From: a virus
IMG/VR virus record: IMGVR_UViG_3300030085_002231
Span: 27,450-91,449 of that record
Direction: 5' to 3' (one strand)
Length of the DNA: 64,000 nucleotides
Part shown: positions 21,168-35,891 of the stretch, one piece after another
Layout of the letters: every line of letters starts with the position of its first letter
How positions within the stretch are numbered: the stretch's first letter is position 1
Notes under the pieces: model-generated
The model's input: the letters and a program-made list of their open reading frames with translations, nothing else
What the model was told of the DNA's origin: nothing
The model's database searches: none
Program-made: the position numbers and the translations under genes

Positions 21168-23660
21168 ATGTTTTATACTTCAGTAGTACGTTACGGTAAT
21201 TCATTTCTGTATCGCGGCTATGACGCTGCCGGCAAACGCGTCTATAAAAAAGATTCCTTCTCACCAAGATTGTTCGTACCTTCCAAAGCCGAAACATCTT
21301 GGCGTGGTCTCGATGGCGCACCCATCGGGCCAGTAGATTTCAAAACAATGCGTGAATGTCGGCAATGGCTTGACCAATATCGTGAAGTTGGTGGCTTCGA
21401 TATTTACGGCAATCCTAATATGATCCAACAGTATATCGCTCATAAGTTTCCAAGAGATATTGAGTTTGATCGTGACATAATCAACGTCACCACAATCGAT
21501 ATTGAAACAGCGTATGAGGATGGATTCCCAGAACCAGAGAAAGCCAACCAAGAAGTTTTGGCTATCACCATCAAAAATAATATCGATGGCATATATCGTG
21601 TATGGGGCATGAAAGATTATGACGTTGGTTCTGCGCTTATACAACCAGTGCGTTATTATAAATGTAAAGACGAGGTTGACTTACTTCTAAAGTTTCTTGA
21701 CTTTTGGCATGACCATCGCAACACGCCTGACGTTGTGACAGGTTGGAATGTAAAGTTTTTTGATATACCTTATCTCGTTAATCGTGTAAACAACGTGCTT
21801 GGTGTAGACCAATGTAAAAAGTTCTCGCCTTGGGGTATGGTTGACTATTCAAAGATTGTCAAACGTGGTCGCGAACAAATCACATACAAACTGCAGGGCA
21901 TACAAACTTTGGATTACCTTGATCTTTTCCAAAAGTTTGGATATACCTATGGCACACAAGAATCTTATAAACTGAACCATATTGCGTACGTAGTTCTTGG
22001 CGAAAAGAAACTGTCCTTTGCCGAAGAAGGTTCTCTACGTAACCTATACAAAGAAGACTTCCAAAAGTATATCGACTATAATATGAAAGATGTACAGTTA
22101 GTTGATAAGCTCGAAGAAAAGATGGGGCTTATCACTCTGGCTATGACTGTGGCGTATAAAGGTGGTGTCAATTACCAAGATACATTTGGTGTGGTTGCAA
22201 TATGGGAATCAATCATATATCGTAAACTCAACTCACAAAAAGTTATGCCAAAGATCGAGCCTGATGAAATGGGCATACGTGATTTTGAAGGTGGCTACGT
22301 TAAAGAACCACAGGTTGGTATGCATGACTGGGTAGTTTCTTTTGATTTGAATTCTCTGTATCCTAATATTATTGTGCAGTGGAACATGTCACCAGAAACT
22401 TTGAACAAAGATCCACAACTTAACATGCCAAGCGGTGTACAAAACTACTTACACAAAGAAGAAAAACAAAACAGTAGTTATACTGTAGCAGCCAATGGTT
22501 CTACTTATCGTAAAGACTTTGATGGTGTGGTACCAAATATCATTGTAGATTATTACGATGAACGGAAGTCAGTTAAGAACATGATGATCGCTGCAGAAAA
22601 AGAATATCAAAAATCTAAAACACCAGAACTTGAAAGAGAAATCAATCGACTCACAAACCAGCAGATGGCGATTAAAATTCTTATGAACTCTTTGTATGGT
22701 GCGATCGGTAACAAACACTTTCGATATTATGATCTACGTATCGCCGAAGGTATTACACTTACCGGTCAGCTCGCAATCAAGTGGGCAGAAAATGCTGTTA
22801 ATGACGAGTTAAATAAAATACTTAAAACAGACGAAGACTATGTTATCGCAATGGATACAGATTCACTCTATATCAACTTTGGTCCTATGATTGAAAAGCT
22901 ACAGCCAAAAGATCCAGTAAAGTTTCTTGATAAGATATGTGTAGAACACTTTGAACCTGTGCTTGCCAAAGCTTATAATAAACTATTTAATGTAATGAAC
23001 TGCTACAAGCCACGTATGGAAATGGGCAGGGAAGTTATTGCGGATCGTGGTATATGGACAGCAAAGAAAAGATATATCCTCAATGTACATAACTCAGAAG
23101 GTGTACAGTACGCACAGCCTAAACTTAAGATCATGGGTATTGAAGCTATCAAGTCTTCAACACCGGAAGTATGCCGTGATAAATTCAAGCAAATATTCAA
23201 TGTGATTATTACTGGCTGTGAAAAAGACACGCAGAAGTTTATACAAGATTTTAAGAATGAGTTTAGGTCACTACCACCTGAACAGGTCGCCTTCCCGCGT
23301 TCTGTAACAAACATTACAGATTACAAAGATCGCAAGACGATATATAAGAAAGGTTCGCCTATTCACGTACGTGGTTCTTTAGTATATAACAAAGCACTCA
23401 AAGAATCTGGTATGATGCATAAGTATGAAGCAATCACAAACGGTAGCCGTATTAAGTTTGTCTATATGAAAAAGCCTAACCTGGTACGTGAAAACGTAAT
23501 TGCTTTTCCGGAAGTATTACCCGAAGAGTTCGGTGTAACACGTAACATAGACTATGACAAGCAATTCGAAAAAACTTTCTTGGAACCACTCGAGCTTATA
23601 CTCAACGCGGTTGGTTGGGATGCCGAAGAGAAAGTTACACTGGAAGATTTCTTTGCATAA
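21168..23660 (+). CDS. gp43: Family B DNA polymerase
   Basis: DIET exonuclease, SFDLNSLYP, KILMNSLYG, DTDS motifs; uninterrupted. Confidence 0.98.
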   Translation: MFYTSVVRYGNSFLYRGYDAAGKRVYKKDSFSPRLFVPSKAETSWRGLDGAPIGPVDFKTMRECRQWLDQYREVGGFDIYGNPNMIQQYIAHKFPRDIEFDRDIINVTTIDIETAYEDGFPEPEKANQEVLAITIKNNIDGIYRVWGMKDYDVGSALIQPVRYYKCKDEVDLLLKFLDFWHDHRNTPDVVTGWNVKFFDIPYLVNRVNNVLGVDQCKKFSPWGMVDYSKIVKRGREQITYKLQGIQTLDYLDLFQKFGYTYGTQESYKLNHIAYVVLGEKKLSFAEEGSLRNLYKEDFQKYIDYNMKDVQLVDKLEEKMGLITLAMTVAYKGGVNYQDTFGVVAIWESIIYRKLNSQKVMPKIEPDEMGIRDFEGGYVKEPQVGMHDWVVSFDLNSLYPNIIVQWNMSPETLNKDPQLNMPSGVQNYLHKEEKQNSSYTVAANGSTYRKDFDGVVPNIIVDYYDERKSVKNMMIAAEKEYQKSKTPELEREINRLTNQQMAIKILMNSLYGAIGNKHFRYYDLRIAEGITLTGQLAIKWAENAVNDELNKILKTDEDYVIAMDTDSLYINFGPMIEKLQPKDPVKFLDKICVEHFEPVLAKAYNKLFNVMNCYKPRMEMGREVIADRGIWTAKKRYILNVHNSEGVQYAQPKLKIMGIEAIKSSTPEVCRDKFKQIFNVIITGCEKDTQKFIQDFKNEFRSLPPEQVAFPRSVTNITDYKDRKTIYKKGSPIHVRGSLVYNKALKESGMMHKYEAITNGSRIKFVYMKKPNLVRENVIAFPEVLPEEFGVTRNIDYDKQFEKTFLEPLELILNAVGWDAEEKVTLEDFFA

Positions 23661-23665
23661 AGTGG

Positions 23666-23694
23666 TTTACTTTTACGATAAAATGGAGTATAAT
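23666..23694 (+). promoter_or_regulatory. Early/middle promoter
   Basis: TTTACT-17-TATAAT; ATG at 23702. Confidence 0.8.
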
Positions 23695-23701
23695 AGATAT
23701 T

Positions 23702-24124
23702 ATGAGTAAAGATTGGGTACAAGATATTAGTGACATGCATACCAAGTTTGGTGTGCGTAAGTGGGTCAATGAACAAATCCAGTTTGGTGAAAAAGAAAAA
23801 CTCGAAAAGTTTCTCGAGTTTCGTCTTAAATTCTTAGAAGAAGAACTCAACGAAACACGAGCTGCAGCAATTGTGGATAAAAATCCAGAAGAAATTGTTG
23901 ACGGTTTGATTGATCTGTGTGTTGTTGCCATTGGTACACTGGATGCGTTTGGAGTTGACGCTCACAAAGCATGGGATAAAGTACACAACGCAAACATGGC
24001 CAAAGAACCGGGTGTAAAAGAATCGCGCCCTAATCCACTTGGCCTGCCCGATCTGATTAAACCAGAAGATTGGAAGGGACCCGATCATCGTGACAACCAT
24101 GGATATTTCATTCACAGTCTTTAA
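23702..24124 (+). CDS. MazG/PRA-PH-like all-alpha NTP pyrophosphohydrolase (candidate dCTPase/dUTPase)
   Basis: EELNE...EEIVDGLID...VHNANMAK...DLIKP. Confidence 0.8.
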   Translation: MSKDWVQDISDMHTKFGVRKWVNEQIQFGEKEKLEKFLEFRLKFLEEELNETRAAAIVDKNPEEIVDGLIDLCVVAIGTLDAFGVDAHKAWDKVHNANMAKEPGVKESRPNPLGLPDLIKPEDWKGPDHRDNHGYFIHSL

Positions 24125-25028
24125 TTCGATATTCGATAACAAGACTGACAAGCGCATGGACTTTCATGACTTTGATGATTTTGAAAAGTTCTTATATAAA
24201 CTTTCAAATCAAGAAAAGTCTTCTAAGAAAGATGCAGTACTAATATCTCCTGCGACATATCAACCCGACACTACACGTGCTAATGCTAATGTTGTAGAAT
24301 GGTCGGGTTGGTGTGCTGTCGATGTGGACGATTACCAACCAGATGGAGATTTAAAAGATGACCTATGTTCTCGCTTTTCTAATTTTAGGTTCATTTGTTA
24401 CAGCACTGCTAGCAGTACGATGGATCAGCCTAAGTTCAGATTGGTGTTCCCTTTGCGAAGACGAGTTGGAAGTGACAGAATCAGACATTTCTGGTATTCT
24501 CTTAACAAAGAGCTCGGAGAACTCAGTGACGCTCAAACTAAAGACTTATCACGCATGTACTATATCCCTGCGAAATACGCTGGTGCTAACAACTTTATTT
24601 TCAGTCATGATGGCGACACACTTGATCCTCAATCTTTAATGGACAAACATCCCTATGCAGAAAAAGCAAACCTCAATAACTTCTTCGACAGACTCCCAGA
24701 TGAGATCCAACGACAAATCATTGAACACAGAAAAGGACAAATGGACAACACTAATGTGGTGTGGACGTCCTATCGCGATTGTCCCTTCTTTCCACGCAAC
24801 CTCGAAGCAGAATACAGAACGATAAGTAATACCGGTTGGTATCACAAGATGTATCAGATCATGGTTGCTATCGCAGGTAACGCAGTCAAAAAGCATTATC
24901 CAATCACAGCACCAGAAATATCAAAGATGTGTAGAGAACTAGATATTGAAACTGGCAACTGGTACAAGAATCGTCCATTGGATAAAGAAGCAGATCGTGC
25001 TCTCGAATATGTTTATAAAAATATGTAA
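24099..25028 (+). CDS. AEP-superfamily primase/polymerase-like protein
   Basis: hhDhDD motif (AVDVDD), YSTASS, PKFRLVFPL, TKDLSRMYYIP; helical PriCT-like C-terminus. Confidence 0.65.
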   Translation: MDISFTVFNSIFDNKTDKRMDFHDFDDFEKFLYKLSNQEKSSKKDAVLISPATYQPDTTRANANVVEWSGWCAVDVDDYQPDGDLKDDLCSRFSNFRFICYSTASSTMDQPKFRLVFPLRRRVGSDRIRHFWYSLNKELGELSDAQTKDLSRMYYIPAKYAGANNFIFSHDGDTLDPQSLMDKHPYAEKANLNNFFDRLPDEIQRQIIEHRKGQMDNTNVVWTSYRDCPFFPRNLEAEYRTISNTGWYHKMYQIMVAIAGNAVKKHYPITAPEISKMCRELDIETGNWYKNRPLDKEADRALEYVYKNM

Positions 25029-25093: not shown

Positions 25094-25528
25094 ATGAAAA
25101 TTGATTCTATAAATGGATGTGCAGTTGTTCCTTTAAAGTTTAGAGATAAAGTATACGTTGACATGTATACAACAGGTGGTCATCATTATTTCTTAGACGA
25201 AAATGGAAATCTTTTTAAATTACAAGAAATGTCTGTTGGTGAAAAACGCCCGTCTGCAAGTATTGATGGTGTGAATGTAACAATTGCTCAAGCTATGTTA
25301 GAATCTTGGTACCACTCACGAGATGAGTGGATTCTTACTGACGATGCTAGACCAGATAATGTTTCAATTGATGATTGGAGAAATACTCCAGATTCAGTAA
25401 AAAAAGCATTAGCTAAAAACGGAGTAGATGTAGACCACAAAAATGGTGATTCTAGTGATAATAGATTATCTAACCTACAATATTTGTATAGACACGCTAA
25501 TGTCATGAAAGGTGGCAAAAAGAAATGA
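25094..25528 (+). CDS. HNH endonuclease (free-standing homing type)
   Basis: VDHKNGDSSDNRLSNLQYL...N. Confidence 0.8.
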   Translation: MKIDSINGCAVVPLKFRDKVYVDMYTTGGHHYFLDENGNLFKLQEMSVGEKRPSASIDGVNVTIAQAMLESWYHSRDEWILTDDARPDNVSIDDWRNTPDSVKKALAKNGVDVDHKNGDSSDNRLSNLQYLYRHANVMKGGKKK

Positions 25529-25878
25529 AAGAATCAATAAAAGTATTACAAGAATGTGCTGAACTACAAGCCAAGAAGTCTGAAGATTATCAGAACGAAG
25601 GTTCAAACGTACTGCAAGCCATGCACTATCGTCGTGGCGTAGACAGCTTACACGATATCATTCAAGGTAAGTGTTATCGTGCACAGTCACTACTTGAATC
25701 TGGTAGTGATCCAAACCATGAATCACTAGAAGATACGTATAAAGATATTATTAACTACTGTTCTTTTGTAGTATCTTACATGCGTGGTAAGATGGAAGGT
25801 CAACGACCTGATCGTGATATGTTTAATAAGCCAAAGGTGAAAAAGAATGAAAGTGGGACTGACGGCGTCGACGTTTGA
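25525..25878 (+). CDS. Nucleotide-modification-associated protein (DUF1599/Nmad1-like)
   Basis: KKSEDY and ESLEDTYKDIINY motifs; located in the modification cluster. Confidence 0.65.
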   Translation: MKESIKVLQECAELQAKKSEDYQNEGSNVLQAMHYRRGVDSLHDIIQGKCYRAQSLLESGSDPNHESLEDTYKDIINYCSFVVSYMRGKMEGQRPDRDMFNKPKVKKNESGTDGVDV

Positions 25879-26269
25879 TTTACTACACGCCGGTCATATC
25901 GTTATGTTGCGTGAAGCAAAATCACAATGTGACTATTTAATATGTGCTTTGCAAGTTGATCCTACACTTGACCGTGCGACTAAGAACGCACCGGTCCAAA
26001 GTATCGTTGAAAGACAAGCACAACTCGCAGCAGTAAGTTACGTTGATGAAGTAATTATTTATTGTACAGAAGCTGATTTAGTTGATATAATAAACATGTA
26101 TCCAATTGATGTAAGAATACTCGGTGAAGAATATAGGCAGAAAGATTTTACTGGTAAAGATGAATGTCGTAATCGTGGCATACAGTTGTACTTTAACAAA
26201 CGTGACCACAGATTTTCATCAACAGATTTGAGAAAGAGAGTAGCAGATGCGAATGACAACCGTAAGTGA
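25847..26269 (+). CDS. Cytidylyltransferase (TagD/glycerol-3-phosphate type)
   Basis: STFDLLHAGH (HxGH), RDHRFSST. Confidence 0.88.
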   Translation: MKVGLTASTFDLLHAGHIVMLREAKSQCDYLICALQVDPTLDRATKNAPVQSIVERQAQLAAVSYVDEVIIYCTEADLVDIINMYPIDVRILGEEYRQKDFTGKDECRNRGIQLYFNKRDHRFSSTDLRKRVADANDNRK

Positions 26270-26924
26270 TATTAGAAAACATTTTATTGGAGAACTAAAA
26301 GATGAAGCCTTCACCACAGACAAAACTGGACAAAACACAATTGAGTTGCTTGGCGCTTCATTTCTTGCAGACGAGCCAGCAATCTTTGGAGATCCAAACG
26401 ATGCGTACATCCGAAGCGAAATTGATTGGTACCTTAGTGGTAGTACTAATATCAATGACATTTATCGCTGGCCTGATCACCCTAGTGATAAACAACCCCC
26501 AGCTGCTTGGCAGCTTGCTGCAAATGAACATGGCGAAATAAACTCTAACTATGGTCGATTGATTTTTAGTGATATATATTATAGACAGTACGATAACGTA
26601 CTTACAGAGTTGACAAATTGGCCTGACTCTCGTAGAGCGTCAATGATTTATCAAAGACCGTCTATATGGATAGAGTATACAGAAAATGGTAAAGGTGATT
26701 TCATATGTACTAATGCTGTCACTTATTATATACGCAATGATGAACTACAGTCAGTGGTCCAAATGCGCTCAAACGATGTCGTGTTCGGATACAAAAATGA
26801 CTATGCTTGGCAGCAGTATGTTCTAGAACAACTTGCAAACGATCTTAATATCAAACCAGGTTTTATAACTTGGCAAGTTCAAAATCTTCACGTTTACGAA
26901 AGACACTTCAACCTTGTTAAATAA
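26247..26924 (+). CDS. gp42: dCMP hydroxymethylase (thymidylate synthase family, gp42-like)
   Basis: YIRSEIDWY, INSNYG, SRRA, DFICTN (catalytic Cys), QMRSNDVVFGYKNDYAW with the dCMP-specifying Asp, LHVYERHF. Confidence 0.88.
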   Translation: MRMTTVSDIRKHFIGELKDEAFTTDKTGQNTIELLGASFLADEPAIFGDPNDAYIRSEIDWYLSGSTNINDIYRWPDHPSDKQPPAAWQLAANEHGEINSNYGRLIFSDIYYRQYDNVLTELTNWPDSRRASMIYQRPSIWIEYTENGKGDFICTNAVTYYIRNDELQSVVQMRSNDVVFGYKNDYAWQQYVLEQLANDLNIKPGFITWQVQNLHVYERHFNLVK

Positions 26925-27387
26925 ATGGGACATGCGATACCTTGCACTCGCAGAAGAAGTAGCACAGTGGTCGAAAGATCCATCCACTAAGATTGGTGCT
27001 ATTGCTGTAGGTAAGAAAGGTCAAGTCTTATCACAGGGTTACAATGGGTTTCCACGTGGTATCGAAGACAAAGTAGAATACTATCAAGATCGTGAAACAA
27101 AATATAAGTACGTAGTACACGCAGAAATGAATGTCATATATAATGCTACATATCATGGTGTTTGTTTAGAAGGCACAACACTATACGTTACAGGTTTACC
27201 CGTTTGTTCTGATTGTGCAAAGGGTATCATACAAGTCGGCATTACAAGAGTAGTAATGAAAGAAAGACTAACACCACAAAAGTGGGTAGACTCATGGAAG
27301 ACTACATCTAAAATGTTTGACGAAGCAAATGTTAAATGGGAGTTTATCAATGTCAGCAACACAGGAATGGTTGAAACAAAAGTTTAG
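26914..27387 (+). CDS. cd: dCMP deaminase
   Basis: SKDPST, GYNGFPRG, HAEMN, PVCSDC. Confidence 0.92.
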   Translation: MLNKWDMRYLALAEEVAQWSKDPSTKIGAIAVGKKGQVLSQGYNGFPRGIEDKVEYYQDRETKYKYVVHAEMNVIYNATYHGVCLEGTTLYVTGLPVCSDCAKGIIQVGITRVVMKERLTPQKWVDSWKTTSKMFDEANVKWEFINVSNTGMVETKV

Positions 27388-27559
27388 AGAAGACGCTGGT
27401 CTAGTAGCTTACAGCAATACTCGATTAACTGAAGAAATAGAAGATCTAAAAGAAAGATTAAAAAAGGTAGAAACTGACATGGCATATACACAGAAGATTA
27501 GATTTGCTCAAAGTCCTGAAGAGCAAAGGATAAATGATATAAGGAACGTAGTAGATTGA
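27350..27559 (+). CDS. Hypothetical coiled-coil protein
   Basis: GGGAG RBS; 69-aa ORF. Confidence 0.5.
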   Translation: MSATQEWLKQKFREDAGLVAYSNTRLTEEIEDLKERLKKVETDMAYTQKIRFAQSPEEQRINDIRNVVD

Positions 27560-27924
27560 TTTTAGTTGTTGGTCATAGTCCTTCTTCTAAAGAGTATTGT
27601 CCGAAGAAAGGCAATCCTTCTATCAACCGTCTTAACAGGTGGCTCGATGCATGTGGTGTGGATATATACAGCTTTACTAACCTGTGTGCACACCACAGTG
27701 AGTCTATCAAAGCAGCAGATATTGATGAAACATTAATAAAAGAATGTGTAAAACCTTATAATAAAGTAATAGCTTTAGGTAATGAAGTAGCACATTATTT
27801 CAAGAAAAAAGGTATCGATTGCTTTCATGCACCTCACCCATCTCCACGTAACAGGAAGTTTAACGACAAAAGTTACGAATCAACTGTAATTAATGGTTTA
27901 CAAAAGTACATACATATGATATAA
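27556..27924 (+). CDS. Minimal uracil-DNA-glycosylase-fold protein
   Basis: VVGHSPS, FTNL, IALG..., PHPSPRNR. Confidence 0.7.
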   Translation: MILVVGHSPSSKEYCPKKGNPSINRLNRWLDACGVDIYSFTNLCAHHSESIKAADIDETLIKECVKPYNKVIALGNEVAHYFKKKGIDCFHAPHPSPRNRKFNDKSYESTVINGLQKYIHMI

Positions 27925-27925
27925 T
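27897..27925 (+). promoter_or_regulatory. Early/middle promoter (agt operon)
   Basis: TTTACA-17-TATAAT. Confidence 0.75.
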
Positions 27926-27956
27926 ATACAATATAATAAAGACATAAGGTGAGACT

Positions 27957-29180
27957 ATGAAAATTGTACATATACTTGGCCGCGGCATTGAAGGTTGCGG
28001 CGTAACTCGATTTACACTTGAGTTAAAAGACTGGGCACTAAGCCAAGGTTGGAATTATACAGTATACGCACCAACCGATAAGAAATGGACACGTGCTTCA
28101 TCACACTATCTAGATGAAAATATTAAACAATGGAAGTGGGGAAACAAGCCCGCCCGCGGAGACACACGTTGTGGCACTGAATCGATTATAGAAGATTGTA
28201 ATAAGTCAGATTTAGTTCTTATTGGTTCACTGCCATCTAAAGGCCACCCAGATGATTGTATAGAAAATTTTGGTAAGTTAATTGAAGGAATCAAAACTAA
28301 AAAAGTTATGATTCAACACGACCACAAGATGATGTCAATCAGACGCAATGCATTGCTAGACGATGTGATTCAATCAGCCGACGTTATCTTTTCGTATTCT
28401 ACTAAAAGTCCTTTTATGGATTACTGTAAAAAGATTGGTGCCAAAGGAAACATGTTTAACTTCTGCAATGGAGTTAACGTACAAAGAATACGTGATGAAT
28501 ACTGGAAACCTATCGAAGAACAAGACCCTGATCATTTAAAATGGATTGGACGGTCTGCATATTGGAAAGGTTTCGATGTACTATTTGATTTACATAAAAG
28601 TACTAAAGGTACTAACTTACTATACACACTTGAAGGAATGGAAAAGTCAATACAGTTCGTAGATATACGTAAAGCTTTTGACTTCCACGAAATGGCTGAA
28701 GAGTTTGATGTAGAAACAAAGCACGGCGAAAAACCTTATGTCTTTGGTGCGTTCAAACATAGTGAAATGTTAGAACGTATGTCACGCTGTGGCTTTGGTT
28801 TTCAGCTGACAACTCTTCAGCCAGAATATATACAGAACTTTATTGAGTTCACACACCTAGAAATCGTAGCGTGTGGTGTAATACCAATTTTTAGAAAAGC
28901 TTTTGGTGATCACTGTACACACCTGCAAACTGGCAATAAACTAACTGCCGATAAAAACACCGGTACTATATGGGCAGGTGAAGTAGGTACAGATTGGAGT
29001 GAAACTATTGAACTCATAAATAAACTTAGATCAGATAATGTAATGCGTAACGAATGGCGTGAAATGGCTTATGAATATTATGCATCACACAACGGGCCGG
29101 ATGTATCGTTTCCTGATATATTCAATAAGATTGATAAACCGGCTGAAGGTCCATCCGACTTGTCTGAATTCTTTGGTTAG
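27957..29180 (+). CDS. DNA alpha-glucosyltransferase (T4 AGT) homolog
   Basis: N-terminus GRGIEGCGVTRFTLE...DK..TR..SH matches T4 AGT (ARGLEGCGVTKFSLE); QHDH, WIGR..WKG, EFTHLEIVACG. Confidence 0.85.
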   Translation: MKIVHILGRGIEGCGVTRFTLELKDWALSQGWNYTVYAPTDKKWTRASSHYLDENIKQWKWGNKPARGDTRCGTESIIEDCNKSDLVLIGSLPSKGHPDDCIENFGKLIEGIKTKKVMIQHDHKMMSIRRNALLDDVIQSADVIFSYSTKSPFMDYCKKIGAKGNMFNFCNGVNVQRIRDEYWKPIEEQDPDHLKWIGRSAYWKGFDVLFDLHKSTKGTNLLYTLEGMEKSIQFVDIRKAFDFHEMAEEFDVETKHGEKPYVFGAFKHSEMLERMSRCGFGFQLTTLQPEYIQNFIEFTHLEIVACGVIPIFRKAFGDHCTHLQTGNKLTADKNTGTIWAGEVGTDWSETIELINKLRSDNVMRNEWREMAYEYYASHNGPDVSFPDIFNKIDKPAEGPSDLSEFFG

Positions 29181-29189
29181 GAGTATAAA

Positions 29190-30140
29190 ATGAAAATATG
29201 TATTACAGGTGGCGCAGGTTTTATTGGCTTTCACTTAGCACAGAAATTACGTAAAGAAGGACACGGGGTATTTGGTTTTGATAACTTCAATAGTTACTAT
29301 GATGTAGACTTAAAAAGAAAACGTGCTGAAATTCTTGAAAGTCTTGGCATTCACATTGAGCCATTGGATTTACGTGTTAGAAGTAAATTAATAGAATATT
29401 TAGATCAAATCAGACCTGATGTTATAATGCACTTAGCAGCCATGGCTGGTGTTAGACACTCCATGGATGATCCAACAGCTTACGTTGATAACAATATTCT
29501 AGGTACACATAACCTTATCGAAGCCTGTGACCTTGTTGGTATTGAAAAAGTAGTGTATGCTTCTACGTCTTGTGTTATGGCTGGCAATCCACTTCCGTGG
29601 AATGAAGAAGAAAAGTTAGGTGTTGCAAAGAACCCATACGGATATTCTAAAGCTACTAATGAAGCACAGTTTATTTCTTCTAAAATCGATTCAACAATTG
29701 GCTTAAGATTCTTTACTGTCTATGGTCCTTGGGGTAGACCAGATATGGCGCTGTTCGATTTTACGAAAAGTATTATAGAAGAAAAACCTATTAAGCTTTT
29801 TAATAATGGTGATATGGTTCGCGACTTTACTTACGTTGATGATATTGTACAGGGCGTAGGTCTTGTCATAGATAGAATAAATGAAAAGTCAGACATTAAC
29901 GAGATTTATAATATTGGCTATGGACAGCAAGTACAACTTATGGAATTTGTAAAACACATAGAACAAAACTTAGATAGGGAAGCTATCAAAGAATACGTAC
30001 CTATGCACCCAGCCGATACACATAAAACTTGGTCTGACACAAGTAAAATAAGACAACTCGGATATTCACCTAAAACTCCAATAGGTAGAGGTGTATACGA
30101 GTTTGTTCAATGGTACAAGGATTATTATCATGTCAATTAA
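29190..30140 (+). CDS. UDP-glucuronate 4-epimerase-like extended SDR
   Basis: GGAGFIG, HLAAMAGVRHS, YGYSK, LRFFTVYGPWGRPDMA, RDFTYVDDIV. Confidence 0.88.
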   Translation: MKICITGGAGFIGFHLAQKLRKEGHGVFGFDNFNSYYDVDLKRKRAEILESLGIHIEPLDLRVRSKLIEYLDQIRPDVIMHLAAMAGVRHSMDDPTAYVDNNILGTHNLIEACDLVGIEKVVYASTSCVMAGNPLPWNEEEKLGVAKNPYGYSKATNEAQFISSKIDSTIGLRFFTVYGPWGRPDMALFDFTKSIIEEKPIKLFNNGDMVRDFTYVDDIVQGVGLVIDRINEKSDINEIYNIGYGQQVQLMEFVKHIEQNLDREAIKEYVPMHPADTHKTWSDTSKIRQLGYSPKTPIGRGVYEFVQWYKDYYHVN

Positions 30141-30957
30141 TATTGCAATCATAGGTCATGGATACGTAGGTAAAGCAGTAGATCATGGCTTCTCTACGAG
30201 TCAAGTTTCAAAGTATATTGTAGATCCAATATATGGGTCTCCAACTATCGAAGATCTCGTTGGTAAGATTCGTTTGCATGCAGCATTTGTTTGTGTACCT
30301 ACACCATTTGGTGATGATGGAAAGATTGATGCTTCTATAGTTAAAGATTCAGTACGTAAATTATCTGGTGCAATGTGTCCTATCGTTGTAAAGTCTACTA
30401 CTACACCTGACGTTATCGAAGAACTTTATTTAGAAAACGAAAACGTAATTTACAACCCAGAGTTCTTGACAGAAAAGAATGCTTTACACGATTTTATCAA
30501 TCCACCAATGCATGTACTTGGTGGTAAGAGGCAGTACACTAATAAAGTATTAGAACTATATGAAAACTACTCGCAGTGTACACCATGTCCAGCATACCAC
30601 ATGACTGCAAAAGAGGCATCCTTTGTAAAGTATGGAATCAATTCATTCTTAGCGAGTAAAGTTCTGTGGTTCAACCAATTTAAGGATGTGGTTGAAAAAT
30701 GGGATGCTAAGTATAACGTAATTGTTAATGCAATAGGTACTGATCCACGTATTGGACACAGTCACACACAAGTACCTGGTCCTGATGGACGTAAAGGTTT
30801 TGGTGGTGCTTGTTTTCCAAAAGATACGAATGCGTTTTGTGCCTTTTCTGATGGAGACCTACCTGTACTTAAAAAGATTATTGAGGAAAACAATAAATAC
30901 AGAAGTCAATATGAACTCGATGATCGTGAAAAAGAACAGAAAGTAAGTTATGAATAA
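30130..30957 (+). CDS. UDP-glucose/GDP-mannose 6-dehydrogenase (short form)
   Basis: IGHGYVG, CVPTP, KST, NPEFL, KY..NSFLA.K, GFGGACFPKD. Confidence 0.88.
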   Translation: MSINIAIIGHGYVGKAVDHGFSTSQVSKYIVDPIYGSPTIEDLVGKIRLHAAFVCVPTPFGDDGKIDASIVKDSVRKLSGAMCPIVVKSTTTPDVIEELYLENENVIYNPEFLTEKNALHDFINPPMHVLGGKRQYTNKVLELYENYSQCTPCPAYHMTAKEASFVKYGINSFLASKVLWFNQFKDVVEKWDAKYNVIVNAIGTDPRIGHSHTQVPGPDGRKGFGGACFPKDTNAFCAFSDGDLPVLKKIIEENNKYRSQYELDDREKEQKVSYE

Positions 30958-32146
30958 TTATGCGAGTATTATACCACTTATTGGCGGTGAAACAATCGCC
31001 ATGCAAAACGTATTTAAGAAAAAACCGGAGTATATTTTAAGCTATGAACCGTTTAAAGCAAACGATACTCACCTTGTTGAGTACTATCAACGAAAAGTTC
31101 CCTACCATCTGTTGGGAGATAACGGGGTGGACAACCTACCTAGTGTCGATGTTGTTAATACCGTATGTCCTTGTGCTGGGCTTAGCAGTCTTAGTACTAC
31201 AGCATCTACTGATTCTGCTGCTAACGATTGGATGCCTACCACAGCTCGTTATGTTTTGGGTACACTCCAACCTCGAGTATTCTGGGGCGAAAACGCACCA
31301 AGACTCGCTTCAGCAATGGGACGACCTATTGTCGAAAGTCTCCGCGAAATCGGTAAAGAGTTTGGATACACTTTCAGCATTTTTAAAACGAAGTCTATCC
31401 TTCATGGATTGAGTCAAGTCAGGGACAGAACGTTTTATTTCTTTTGGAAAGGTGATAAAGTACCAGTCTTTGAATATATAAAAAGGGAACACGAAAAAAT
31501 AGAAGACACGATACGTTCCGTGAAACGTGATCCACAGGATCCAATGAATGTACTTACTAATAAACGTGTTCCTACAGAAGACCCGTTCTATCGATACATT
31601 TTAGAAGAACTAGAAAATAATATTAGTCATACAGATTTTCAAAATAAGATACAAAAATCTTATGATGTCTTGTGGTACATAGAACAACACGTTACCTATG
31701 ATAAAGTTGCAAAGTGGATGGACAAGAATGGCTTTATAAAAAAAGCTGAACGCTGTCGTACAATGTTTGACAAATTAAAAGCTGGCGGTAACGTAATGAG
31801 AAGAGGTGTGTACATACCGAAAGATTATATAGGTGCCTTTGTTGGAGCACTACCTACAATGTGCACACACCCAGATGAAAATAGATTTTTAACTATTAGA
31901 GAATGTTTAAGTATTATGAAATTACCTTCTGATTTTGTATTACAAGGTGGCCTTAAAAATTTAAATCACATATGTCAAAACGTACCTGTCACTACTGCAA
32001 TGGATATGGCAGAACACGTATTAAAATATCTTGATGGCAGACTTGATAATAGGATGATCGATACAGATTACTTAGTACAAGATAATAAGAATATGACATT
32101 GAATTACAAAAAAGACAGTGTACAACTTGACGCTTTTATGGTATAA
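30950..32146 (+). CDS. C5-cytosine DNA methyltransferase-fold protein with degenerate SAM motif I
   Basis: PC (VCPCAGLS), ENAP, QVRDR, RFLTIRE...P.DF, QNVP; motif I reads IPLIGG instead of FxGxGG. Confidence 0.75.
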   Translation: MNNYASIIPLIGGETIAMQNVFKKKPEYILSYEPFKANDTHLVEYYQRKVPYHLLGDNGVDNLPSVDVVNTVCPCAGLSSLSTTASTDSAANDWMPTTARYVLGTLQPRVFWGENAPRLASAMGRPIVESLREIGKEFGYTFSIFKTKSILHGLSQVRDRTFYFFWKGDKVPVFEYIKREHEKIEDTIRSVKRDPQDPMNVLTNKRVPTEDPFYRYILEELENNISHTDFQNKIQKSYDVLWYIEQHVTYDKVAKWMDKNGFIKKAERCRTMFDKLKAGGNVMRRGVYIPKDYIGAFVGALPTMCTHPDENRFLTIRECLSIMKLPSDFVLQGGLKNLNHICQNVPVTTAMDMAEHVLKYLDGRLDNRMIDTDYLVQDNKNMTLNYKKDSVQLDAFMV

Positions 32147-35020: not shown

Positions 35021-35226
35021 TTTATAGAGGACCAGGAATCAGTACGTATTGGGGAAGCGATGAGTATGAAGATCGCAGAGCTGAAGTTATGAAAAATGAA
35101 TTAGGCTTTTATATCGATATGTACAGAAAAGATAAGCTCGTTGAATCTAGGCCTCTATACGAACACAGCCAAATGTATGCAGAAAGTGCTGCAGAAAATT
35201 ATGTTATGGGAATTCTTAATCCATGA
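35017..35226 (+). CDS. Hypothetical protein
   Basis: ATGA overlaps; YAESAAENYV motif. Confidence 0.65.
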   Translation: MIYRGPGISTYWGSDEYEDRRAEVMKNELGFYIDMYRKDKLVESRPLYEHSQMYAESAAENYVMGILNP

Positions 35227-35891
35227 AAGTACGACTTATTAGTTACAGTAAACCACCGGAGGAACTCTATGTTGGTGACAACGTCCAAGAACTCATTGCG
35301 TATACAGCCCGTGTCTCGAACCCATCGAACCAAGACAACACCGAAACGTCAGAAAGATTACTACGATACCTCATTAGAGAAAAACACTGGTCGCCATTTG
35401 AAATGGTTAGCGCTTGCTTGGAAGTAGAAACTACCCGTGATATCGCAAGGCAGCTTTTGAGACATAGATCATTCTCTTTTCAAGAGTTTAGTCAGAGATA
35501 TGCTGACCCTACACAAGATCTTAAGTTTCAATTGAAAGATGCACGTCTACAAGACACAAAGAATAGACAGAATAGTATAAATGTAAAAGATCCAGACTTA
35601 CAACTAGAATGGTTAAAACAACAATCGGAGGCAGTCAATGCAGCAAAAAAATCTTACAGCTGGGCAATCGAAAATGGTATTGCTAAAGAACAAGCTCGTG
35701 CAGTTTTACCGGAAGGTATCATGGAATCTCGATTGTATGTCAACGGCACCATTAGGTCCTGGATACATTACGTCGGATTACGTTCAGGTCATGGGACGCA
35801 AAAAGAACACATACAACTCGCAGTAGAATGTGCGAAAGCTTTAGAACCTATCTTTCCTATGATTATGGAGTTTTGTAATGAAGAAGATTAA
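35223..35891 (+). CDS. thyX: Flavin-dependent thymidylate synthase
   Basis: HWSPFE, RQLLRHRSFSFQEFSQRY, EQARAVLP. Confidence 0.96.
   Translation: MKVRLISYSKPPEELYVGDNVQELIAYTARVSNPSNQDNTETSERLLRYLIREKHWSPFEMVSACLEVETTRDIARQLLRHRSFSFQEFSQRYADPTQDLKFQLKDARLQDTKNRQNSINVKDPDLQLEWLKQQSEAVNAAKKSYSWAIENGIAKEQARAVLPEGIMESRLYVNGTIRSWIHYVGLRSGHGTQKEHIQLAVECAKALEPIFPMIMEFCNEED

Follow-up and report, generated by a model that had tools for sequence, protein, structure and literature searches.

Which sugar does a phage place on its DNA when the gene for the DNA glycosyltransferase is packed together with genes that tailor nucleotide sugars? The question is raised by a 64,000-nucleotide stretch of the IMG/VR virus record IMGVR_UViG_3300030085_002231 (positions 27,450 to 91,449; hereafter the window), in which genes for the synthesis of 5-hydroxymethylcytosine (hmC) precede a homolog of the T4 α-glucosyltransferase (AGT), an epimerase-type short-chain dehydrogenase/reductase (SDR), a short dehydrogenase of the UDP-glucose dehydrogenase (Ugd) family and a C5-cytosine-methyltransferase-like gene. 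The window comes from a 91-kb viral contig, of an estimated completeness of about 52%, from an uncultured marine T4-like phage; the contig carries a gp43 polymerase, UvsX and a gp41-type helicase. A preliminary description of the locus proposed that the phage makes its own acidic sugar donor, and every gene that it named was recovered on the + strand where it had been placed. From the gene content, the sugar attached by the AGT homolog is predicted to be a hexuronic acid, and most likely galacturonate, because a dehydrogenase and a 4-epimerase are both present; we hold this prediction with about even confidence. The region has no megablast match among the INPHARED phages, and the cassette was found in no isolate.

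The cassette genes all lie on the + strand, with the polymerase on one side and UvsX on the other. Those on which the question turns, and the promoter-like site among them, are:

25847-26269, + strand: TagD/ECT/RfaE-II-type cytidylyltransferase-fold nucleotidyltransferase (PF01467, CTP_transf_like, E 1e-12)
26247-26924, + strand: gp42-type dCMP hydroxymethylase (PDB 1B49, E 4e-67, residues 4-224)
26914-27387, + strand: dCMP deaminase (dCMP_cyt_deam_1, PF00383, E 7e-20; phrog_174, E 2e-44)
27897-27925, + strand: sigma-70-like promoter match (TTTACA-17-TATAAT, 11/12, with TG; a consensus match only)
27957-29180, + strand: AGT-family DNA glycosyltransferase (PF11440, E 1.4e-54; T4 AGT, PDB 1Y6F, E 6e-65)
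29190-30140, + strand: UDP-glucuronate 4-epimerase-type extended SDR (PDB 5U4Q, E 8e-79)
30130-30957 (open reading frame from 30091), + strand: short nucleotide-sugar 6-dehydrogenase (UDPG_MGDP_dh N-terminal and central domains, PF03721 and PF00984)
30950-32146, + strand: C5-cytosine-methyltransferase-like enzyme (DNA_methylase, PF00145, E 8e-17)

The transferase unit and its substrate

The hydroxymethylase, described at the outset as gp42-type with a catalytic cysteine and a dCMP-specifying aspartate, keeps that description on alignment with the T4 enzyme (1B49): the Cys lies in FICTN, aligned to FMCTN of T4, and the Asp in KNDYAW, aligned to RNDYAW, the Asp being replaced by N in PDB entry 6L18. 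The best thymidylate synthase match, by comparison, reaches only E 2e-10. PF00383 and phrog_174 confirm the dCMP deaminase. The AGT homolog matches PF11440 over positions 1-354 of 355 with 185.9 bits (cut-off 25) and is about 34% identical to T4 AGT, so that the homology claimed for it holds over its full length. In the pathway proposed here, hydroxymethyl-dCMP would be made by the gp42 homolog, a well-supported step, and the dCMP deaminase, together with a MazG-like enzyme, Nmad1 and ThyX (listed further below), would favour incorporation of hmC during replication. That hmC in the DNA would then be glycosylated by the AGT homolog is well supported by homology.

AGT heads a promoter-led unit of four genes, as had been noted. 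The site at 27897-27925 is the top sigma-70-like match between 23500 and 33500 and lies directly 5' of AGT, and the order AGT, SDR, short Ugd, C5-methyltransferase-like gene is maintained with a 9-nucleotide gap followed by overlaps of 11 and 8 nucleotides. No convincing terminator-like site was found inside the unit; one weak match with a 5-bp stem occurs at 28781-28793. In the third step of the pathway, the two genes co-transcribed with AGT would determine the donor: the short dehydrogenase would oxidise nucleotide-bound glucose to glucuronate, and the SDR would epimerise the glucuronate at C4, most likely converting UDP-glucuronate (UDP-GlcA) to UDP-galacturonate (UDP-GalA). The product would be an α-hexuronosyl-hmC in the DNA, probably galacturonosyl-hmC, and the C5-methyltransferase-like enzyme would be a fixed fourth component.

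The SDR has retained its identification as UDP-glucuronate-4-epimerase-like. Besides 5U4Q it matches characterised UDP-GlcA 4-epimerases, that of Bacillus cereus (6ZL6, E 3.5e-48) and MoeE5 (E 9e-35), and its glycine-rich NAD motif GGAGFIG and its YxxxK motif, YGYSK, are invariant in 48 homologs. The carboxylate-handling residues are kept: alignment to 6ZL6 recovers Thr126, Ser127, Tyr149, Lys153, Thr178 and Arg185, with Cys in place of Ser128, and the equivalents of S127, Y149, K153, T178 and R185 are invariant across 48 distinct phage SDR homologs. The B. cereus epimerase uses Arg185 as a clamp for the UDP-GalA carboxylate, and it becomes a decarboxylase when that residue is lost (PMC12338863).

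The dehydrogenase, first described as a UDP-glucose 6-dehydrogenase, has the NAD-binding and central domains and the catalytic Cys of that enzyme, but it is a short form in which the C-terminal domain is missing. Translation probably begins with the ATG at 30130, giving a protein of 275 amino acids that carries GHGYVG, NPEFLxE, the K/N pair and GGACFPKD with the catalytic Cys; in 19 homologs GxGxxG, NPEFLxE, the K/N pair and the Cys of GGACFPKD are invariant. The chain stops about 45 residues past that Cys, where the next gene starts, and its alignment with solved enzymes of ~445 amino acids covers roughly their residues 85-320. Its AlphaFold2 model (predicted local distance difference test score, pLDDT, 86.5) matches UDP-glucose dehydrogenases in Foldseek with a template-modelling (TM) score of 0.72-0.78 on the query and about 0.5 on the target. 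Homologs number over 7,000, and the best 120 are 229-293 amino acids long (most 270-290) with two domains only. Viral or marine sequences predominate among the thousands of members of the ~275-amino-acid subfamily, and the short Ugd is present on at least 591 IMG/VR contigs. A pseudogene was considered and rejected, since homologs of equal length run into the thousands and the catalytic residues are invariant.

With canonical Ugd/UGDH the short Ugd thus shares the NAD-binding and central domains, the catalytic Cys motif, the other invariant catalytic residues and the fold; it differs in that PF03720 is wholly missing, the N-domain is shortened and a longer conserved loop precedes the Cys. The C-terminal UDP-sugar-binding domain is a defining part of canonical Ugd. 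Judged by its residues and its model, the short Ugd is a genuine enzyme of the UDP-glucose dehydrogenase family; its substrate we infer, as we do its production of UDP-GlcA, since the domain that binds the UDP-sugar is missing. A complex prediction for the short Ugd with the cytidylyltransferase, in which the missing domain might be replaced in trans, scored 0.00 and is evidence neither way.

A slot for sugar genes beside the transferase

The comparative sample comprised ~200 related loci, collected with AGT, the short Ugd and a β-glucosyltransferase-like (BGT-like) protein as seeds and annotated by tblastn and clustering; the counts come from related contigs, with no correction for shared descent. 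A survey of 120 loci having both a transferase and the C5-methyltransferase-like gene concerned the interval between those two genes, here called the slot. Its contents are:

AGT loci: SDR-Ugd in 19 (plus the window), SDR only in 0, UDP-galactopyranose mutase in 0, empty in 17
BGT-like family loci: SDR-Ugd in 9, SDR only in 4, UDP-galactopyranose mutase in 32, empty in 35
TET-associated glycosyltransferase (TAGT, PF20691) loci: SDR-Ugd in 1, SDR only in 0, UDP-galactopyranose mutase in 0, empty in 3

Wherever the slot is filled, it holds UDP-sugar-tailoring genes exclusively, as would be expected if it supplied the donor of the adjacent transferase. The transferase itself can be exchanged. In the closest sugar-gene relatives (L039, L040 and L130-L136; SDR about 70% and Ugd about 78% identical) the place of AGT is taken by a 363-amino-acid protein with no Pfam match, so that the sugar module stays and the transferase changes. 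The BGT-like family (u74; ~365 amino acids; L040:3975-5066, and also L039 and L130-L208) comprises 483 clusters, with members encoded on 259 IMG/VR contigs, and the best match of its AlphaFold2 model (pLDDT 83.6) is T4 β-glucosyltransferase (E 9.5e-9, TM about 0.6). At 79 loci the family stands exactly in the position of AGT; gp42 precedes it at 76 of them and the C5-methyltransferase-like gene follows it at 78. By position and model it is likely to be an unnamed family of hmC DNA glycosyltransferases. The mutase found at 32 of its loci (L146, L159-L161, L163-L167, L171-L177 and L194-L208) is a homolog of the UDP-galactopyranose mutase (PF03275) of phage C48C1, the nearest named relative of the window phage (classified in Kyanoviridae; short Ugd 45% identical), and predicts galactofuranosyl-hmC in those phages.

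At three gp42-positive loci (L086:7974-9991, L103:2719-5543 and L113:5386-7409) the transferase position, from dCMP deaminase to short Ugd-SDR, is filled by two adjacent proteins of ~320 and ~345 amino acids with no Pfam match. These pairs may represent yet another type of transferase.

The downstream border of the slot is the most constant companion of gp42 and the transferase, whether AGT, BGT-like or TAGT, across ~120 loci, and is present in all AGT loci that extend that far. PF00145 upholds its first description as C5-methylase-like, and the protein is only remotely related to solved C5 methylases. Of the C5-methyltransferase motifs, IV, VI, VIII, IX and X are present: all 16 family members compared have PCAGLS (IV), GENAP (VI), QVRDR (VIII, QxRxR) and QNVPV. 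Equally invariant is motif I, the AdoMet-binding loop, which reads PLIGG, so that the first Gly and the aromatic residue of FxGxG are replaced. There is no TET/JBP gene on the contig, so the C5-methyltransferase-like gene belongs to no methylase-dioxygenase route here. In the L007-L012 subclade a small class-I methyltransferase-like gene (a weak Pfam match; L009:14185-14784) lies between the C5-methyltransferase-like gene and UvsX.

Candidate sugars and donors

The phage-made acidic donor of the preliminary description, leading to hexuronosyl-hmC, agrees with the hmC genes, the AGT homolog, the SDR residues and the slot, and with the AGT tree, on which presence of SDR and Ugd marks two whole clades, for which 2 changes suffice; the truncation of the dehydrogenase speaks against it. 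A hexuronic acid is a reasonable conclusion that gains from the modular slot and from published precedent (below), and loses from the truncated dehydrogenase and from a sister clade of AGT that has no sugar genes.

Several observations weigh against a hexuronic acid. PF03720 is absent both from the short Ugd and from the whole contig (roughly half a genome), in a search that detected its controls. The sister clade of the window AGT, 66-69% identical to it, has AGT directly followed by the C5-methyltransferase-like gene, and sugar genes are absent, which indicates that an AGT of this lineage can use a host donor. In AGT itself, 52 positions distinguish the window clade from the sister without sugar genes, and the two clades with sugar genes, which are distant from each other (32-35% identity), have no telling substitution in common, for instance to a basic residue, from which an acidic donor could be read. 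Among 31 Ugd-seeded complete islands, meaning loci covered from the primase-like gene through UvsX, a transferase-like gene is present in 9 and gp42 in 7. One large contig (G001, which contains L054; 177 kb, 86% complete) carries two TAGT genes and SDR-short Ugd, and has no gp42, thymidylate-synthase-family or TET/JBP gene (cf. L122, L124). The distribution of the short Ugd is wider than DNA glycosylation alone accounts for.

The sister clade, and another clade of 41% identity that likewise lacks the sugar genes, would be explained if the AGT homolog, like its T4 counterpart, took a common hexose from the host (glucose or galactose), while the SDR, short Ugd and cytidylyltransferase drained or rerouted host nucleotide sugars, remodelled the envelope or capsule, or glycosylated the virion. 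The short Ugd is indeed widespread, and it often stands alone or with the cytidylyltransferase near UvsX, with no transferase nearby. We nevertheless regard a host hexose as unlikely, if the most serious competitor: filled slots contain UDP-sugar-tailoring genes only, and do so across three DNA transferase families; the AGT-SDR-Ugd-cytidylyltransferase cassette enters other genome contexts as a unit (L030, L031, L035); and its surroundings in the window are those of early replication, not of structural or lysis genes. The preliminary description had held that dehydrogenase and epimerase genes occurring independently of AGT would imply a cell-surface role. They do occur without AGT, then often, at the loci inspected for this, near other DNA glycosyltransferases, and in other T4-like lineages the short Ugd also adjoins TAGT and GT4-like proteins. 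A cell-surface role deduced from such occurrences is weakened, the genes being found next to TAGT, GT4-like or BGT-like genes or in a genome with TET/JBP and BGT-like genes. That genome is the complete one of C48C1, in which SDR-Ugd adjoins UvsX and AGT, TAGT and gp42 are absent. Elsewhere C48C1 has a cluster (L129:3584-7031; OQ984149.1 49583-53030) of a TET/JBP dioxygenase, a BGT-like homolog (E 3e-57) and the UDP-galactopyranose mutase, annotated as hypothetical proteins and with no C5 methylase nearby, which may be another route to a glycosylated base, derived from thymine or cytosine.

The nucleotide on the donor is a separate matter, on which the TagD-like enzyme bears. It matches TIGR02199 below the cut-off (E 1e-19) and, in the PDB, ECT (3ELB, E 1.4e-17) and TagD (1COZ, E 1.6e-12), has the motifs HxGH and RFSST (RxSST-type), and is nearest to ethanolamine-phosphate and glycerol-3-phosphate cytidylyltransferases and to the adenylyltransferase domain of RfaE. 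The preliminary description suggested that it might add a further substituent; it accompanies the short Ugd rather than gp42, and may serve donor synthesis instead. In 43 complete islands it occurs 28 times with the short Ugd and never without it, the short Ugd being alone in 7 and both genes missing in 8; it often adjoins the short Ugd (cf. L066, L071-L080, L105-L117) and is not found in AGT loci without sugar genes. Given this co-travel, the enzyme probably belongs with the sugar genes and not with those for hmC. Several lineages have a series of a phosphomannomutase-type HAD enzyme, the nucleotidyltransferase and the short Ugd, which suggests a self-contained NDP-sugar pathway and, with the TagD-like enzyme in the sugar module, leaves room for a donor nucleotide other than UDP.

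A module that does not start from UDP-glucose would have the cytidylyltransferase-fold enzyme make a CDP- or ADP-sugar and the short dehydrogenase oxidise either that sugar or glucose already attached to hmC in the DNA, and the final substituent would differ from plain glucuronate or galacturonate delivered from UDP. The loss of the UDP-sugar-binding domain throughout the short-Ugd subfamily, the constant company of the short Ugd wherever the cytidylyltransferase occurs in the 43 islands and the mutase-nucleotidyltransferase-dehydrogenase series are all consistent with such a module, and in a published case (contig 53) a CTP-transferase feeds a GT-B glycosyltransferase (GT) to give heptosyl-hmC (bioRxiv 10.1101/2023.12.21.572611). 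The SDR, however, is about 50% identical to a UDP-GlcA-epimerase-type enzyme, and the identity extends through the whole protein and so into the half that binds the nucleotide; the cytidylyltransferase is missing from 7 of the 35 short-Ugd islands, and the co-occurrence counts are uncorrected for shared ancestry. A non-UDP module is, on balance, improbable. Somewhat more doubtful again is the combination of a short dehydrogenase that works off UDP-sugars (on hmC-glucose or a CDP- or ADP-sugar) with a C5-methyltransferase-like enzyme, altered in its cofactor loop, that performs chemistry other than methylation through covalent attack at C6 of hmC or glycosyl-hmC; if it held, marine T4-like phages would carry an undescribed cytosine modification and an undescribed enzyme logic.

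Least probable, with only a slim chance of being right, is a pentose such as xylose or arabinose, for which UDP-GlcA would be merely an intermediate and the SDR a decarboxylase (compare the arabinosyl-hmC of RB69). UDP-xylose and UDP-arabinose do derive from UDP-GlcA, an epimerase deprived of its Arg185 clamp becomes a decarboxylase (PMC12338863), and the SDR that stands beside a short Ugd and a TAGT at one locus (L069) has as its best PDB match human UDP-GlcA decarboxylase (E 1e-25). That match is scarcely above the one to GalE, however, and Arg185 and the Thr/Ser carboxylate network are kept in the window SDR and in all 48 homologs.

Known systems and neighbouring genes

The preliminary description spoke of a candidate new DNA hypermodification pathway. 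The base itself is not new: hexuronosyl-5hmC has been reported in a study of metavirome clusters reconstituted in E. coli ('Virus-encoded glycosyltransferases hypermodify DNA with diverse glycans'; bioRxiv 10.1101/2023.12.21.572611). Hexuronic-acid-modified 5hmC (433 amu) was measured there for contig 57 (epimerase and GT) and contig 91 (GT alone) as the product of phage GT-A enzymes, and the majority of epimerase-linked GTs required their own epimerase (10.1101/2023.12.21.572611). The subclass II clusters of that study (C5 methyltransferase, 5mYOX/TET dioxygenase, GT and epimerase) resemble the window, when compared by description rather than by sequence, in pairing a DNA glycosyltransferase with a sugar epimerase. 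In those clusters, however, hmC arises after replication from a methylase and a dioxygenase, whereas in the window gp42 would make it before replication, the transferase is of the AGT type and a truncated dehydrogenase is supplied as well.

Bacillus phage SP-15 offers a second precedent. Its DNA bears glucose and phosphoglucuronolactone on dihydroxypentyluracil, and the UDP-glucose dehydrogenase that it encodes is predicted, with a phosphomannomutase and nucleotidyltransferases, to supply the uronic acid (PMC5977210). A phage-encoded dehydrogenase (a weak tblastn match of the window short Ugd) and a uronic acid on phage DNA, which for the window is predicted, are thus common to both; the SP-15 base is a uracil derivative, its glucuronate is phosphodiester-linked, and the phage family and transferases differ.

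In T-even phages, hmC is made before replication and glycosylated after it. The window shares with that system the gp42 homolog, the dCMP deaminase, an AGT-family transferase and a location in the replication gene block. Unlike T4, it has an epimerase-type SDR and a short dehydrogenase co-transcribed with AGT; the C5-methyltransferase-like gene, Nmad1 and the cytidylyltransferase, which are constant or frequent partners in its relatives, are absent from T4, and no T4-type gp56 was seen in the window, which has a MazG-like enzyme instead. A literature search found no paper in which a gp42-type phage couples an AGT- or BGT-like transferase with an epimerase and a dehydrogenase. Hexuronosyl-hmC is accordingly a known kind of base, and the coupling of a gp42-type AGT or BGT-like transferase with SDR-Ugd is a new variant. 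If the hexuronic-acid prediction is correct, abundant marine T4-like phages bear a negatively charged galacturonate or glucuronate on every hydroxymethylcytosine, and a plug-in slot beside the DNA glycosyltransferase (filled with uronic-acid genes or UDP-galactopyranose mutase, or left empty) sets the genome sugar. Such a charge could, as the preliminary description suggested, help the DNA to evade GmrSD-type enzymes. The variety of sugars known to camouflage DNA whose hmC is made before replication would grow, AGT- and BGT-like transferases with new donors would become available for 5hmC labelling, along with a minimal two-domain sugar dehydrogenase, and the question would arise of what a C5-methyltransferase-like enzyme does on DNA already substituted at C5.

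The remaining features of the region are:

23615-24124, + strand: MazG/PRA-PH-like NTP pyrophosphohydrolase (PF01503, E 6.6e-10; start codon uncertain)
24090-25028: conserved 312-amino-acid protein with no Pfam match
25525-25878, + strand: Nmad1 (DUF1599) protein (PF07659, E 3e-7)
27556-27924, + strand: small uracil-DNA glycosylase (UDG)-superfamily-like protein of 122 amino acids (PF03167, E 1.6e-4, below cut-off; synteny)
35223-35891: ThyX

The MazG/PRA-PH-like protein is a candidate dCTP-clearing enzyme, and it is plausible that it and ThyX round out a set of enzymes that rewire the nucleotide pool. Nmad1 accompanies gp42 in relatives, at 61 of the 79 BGT-like family loci and the majority of AGT loci. 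The UDG-superfamily-like protein lies 5' of the transferase in the window and at 42 of those 79 loci. The 312-amino-acid protein follows the polymerase gene on its 3' side in nearly all relatives; it is annotated as 'DNA primase' in C48C1 and was noted as AEP-primase-like in the preliminary description.

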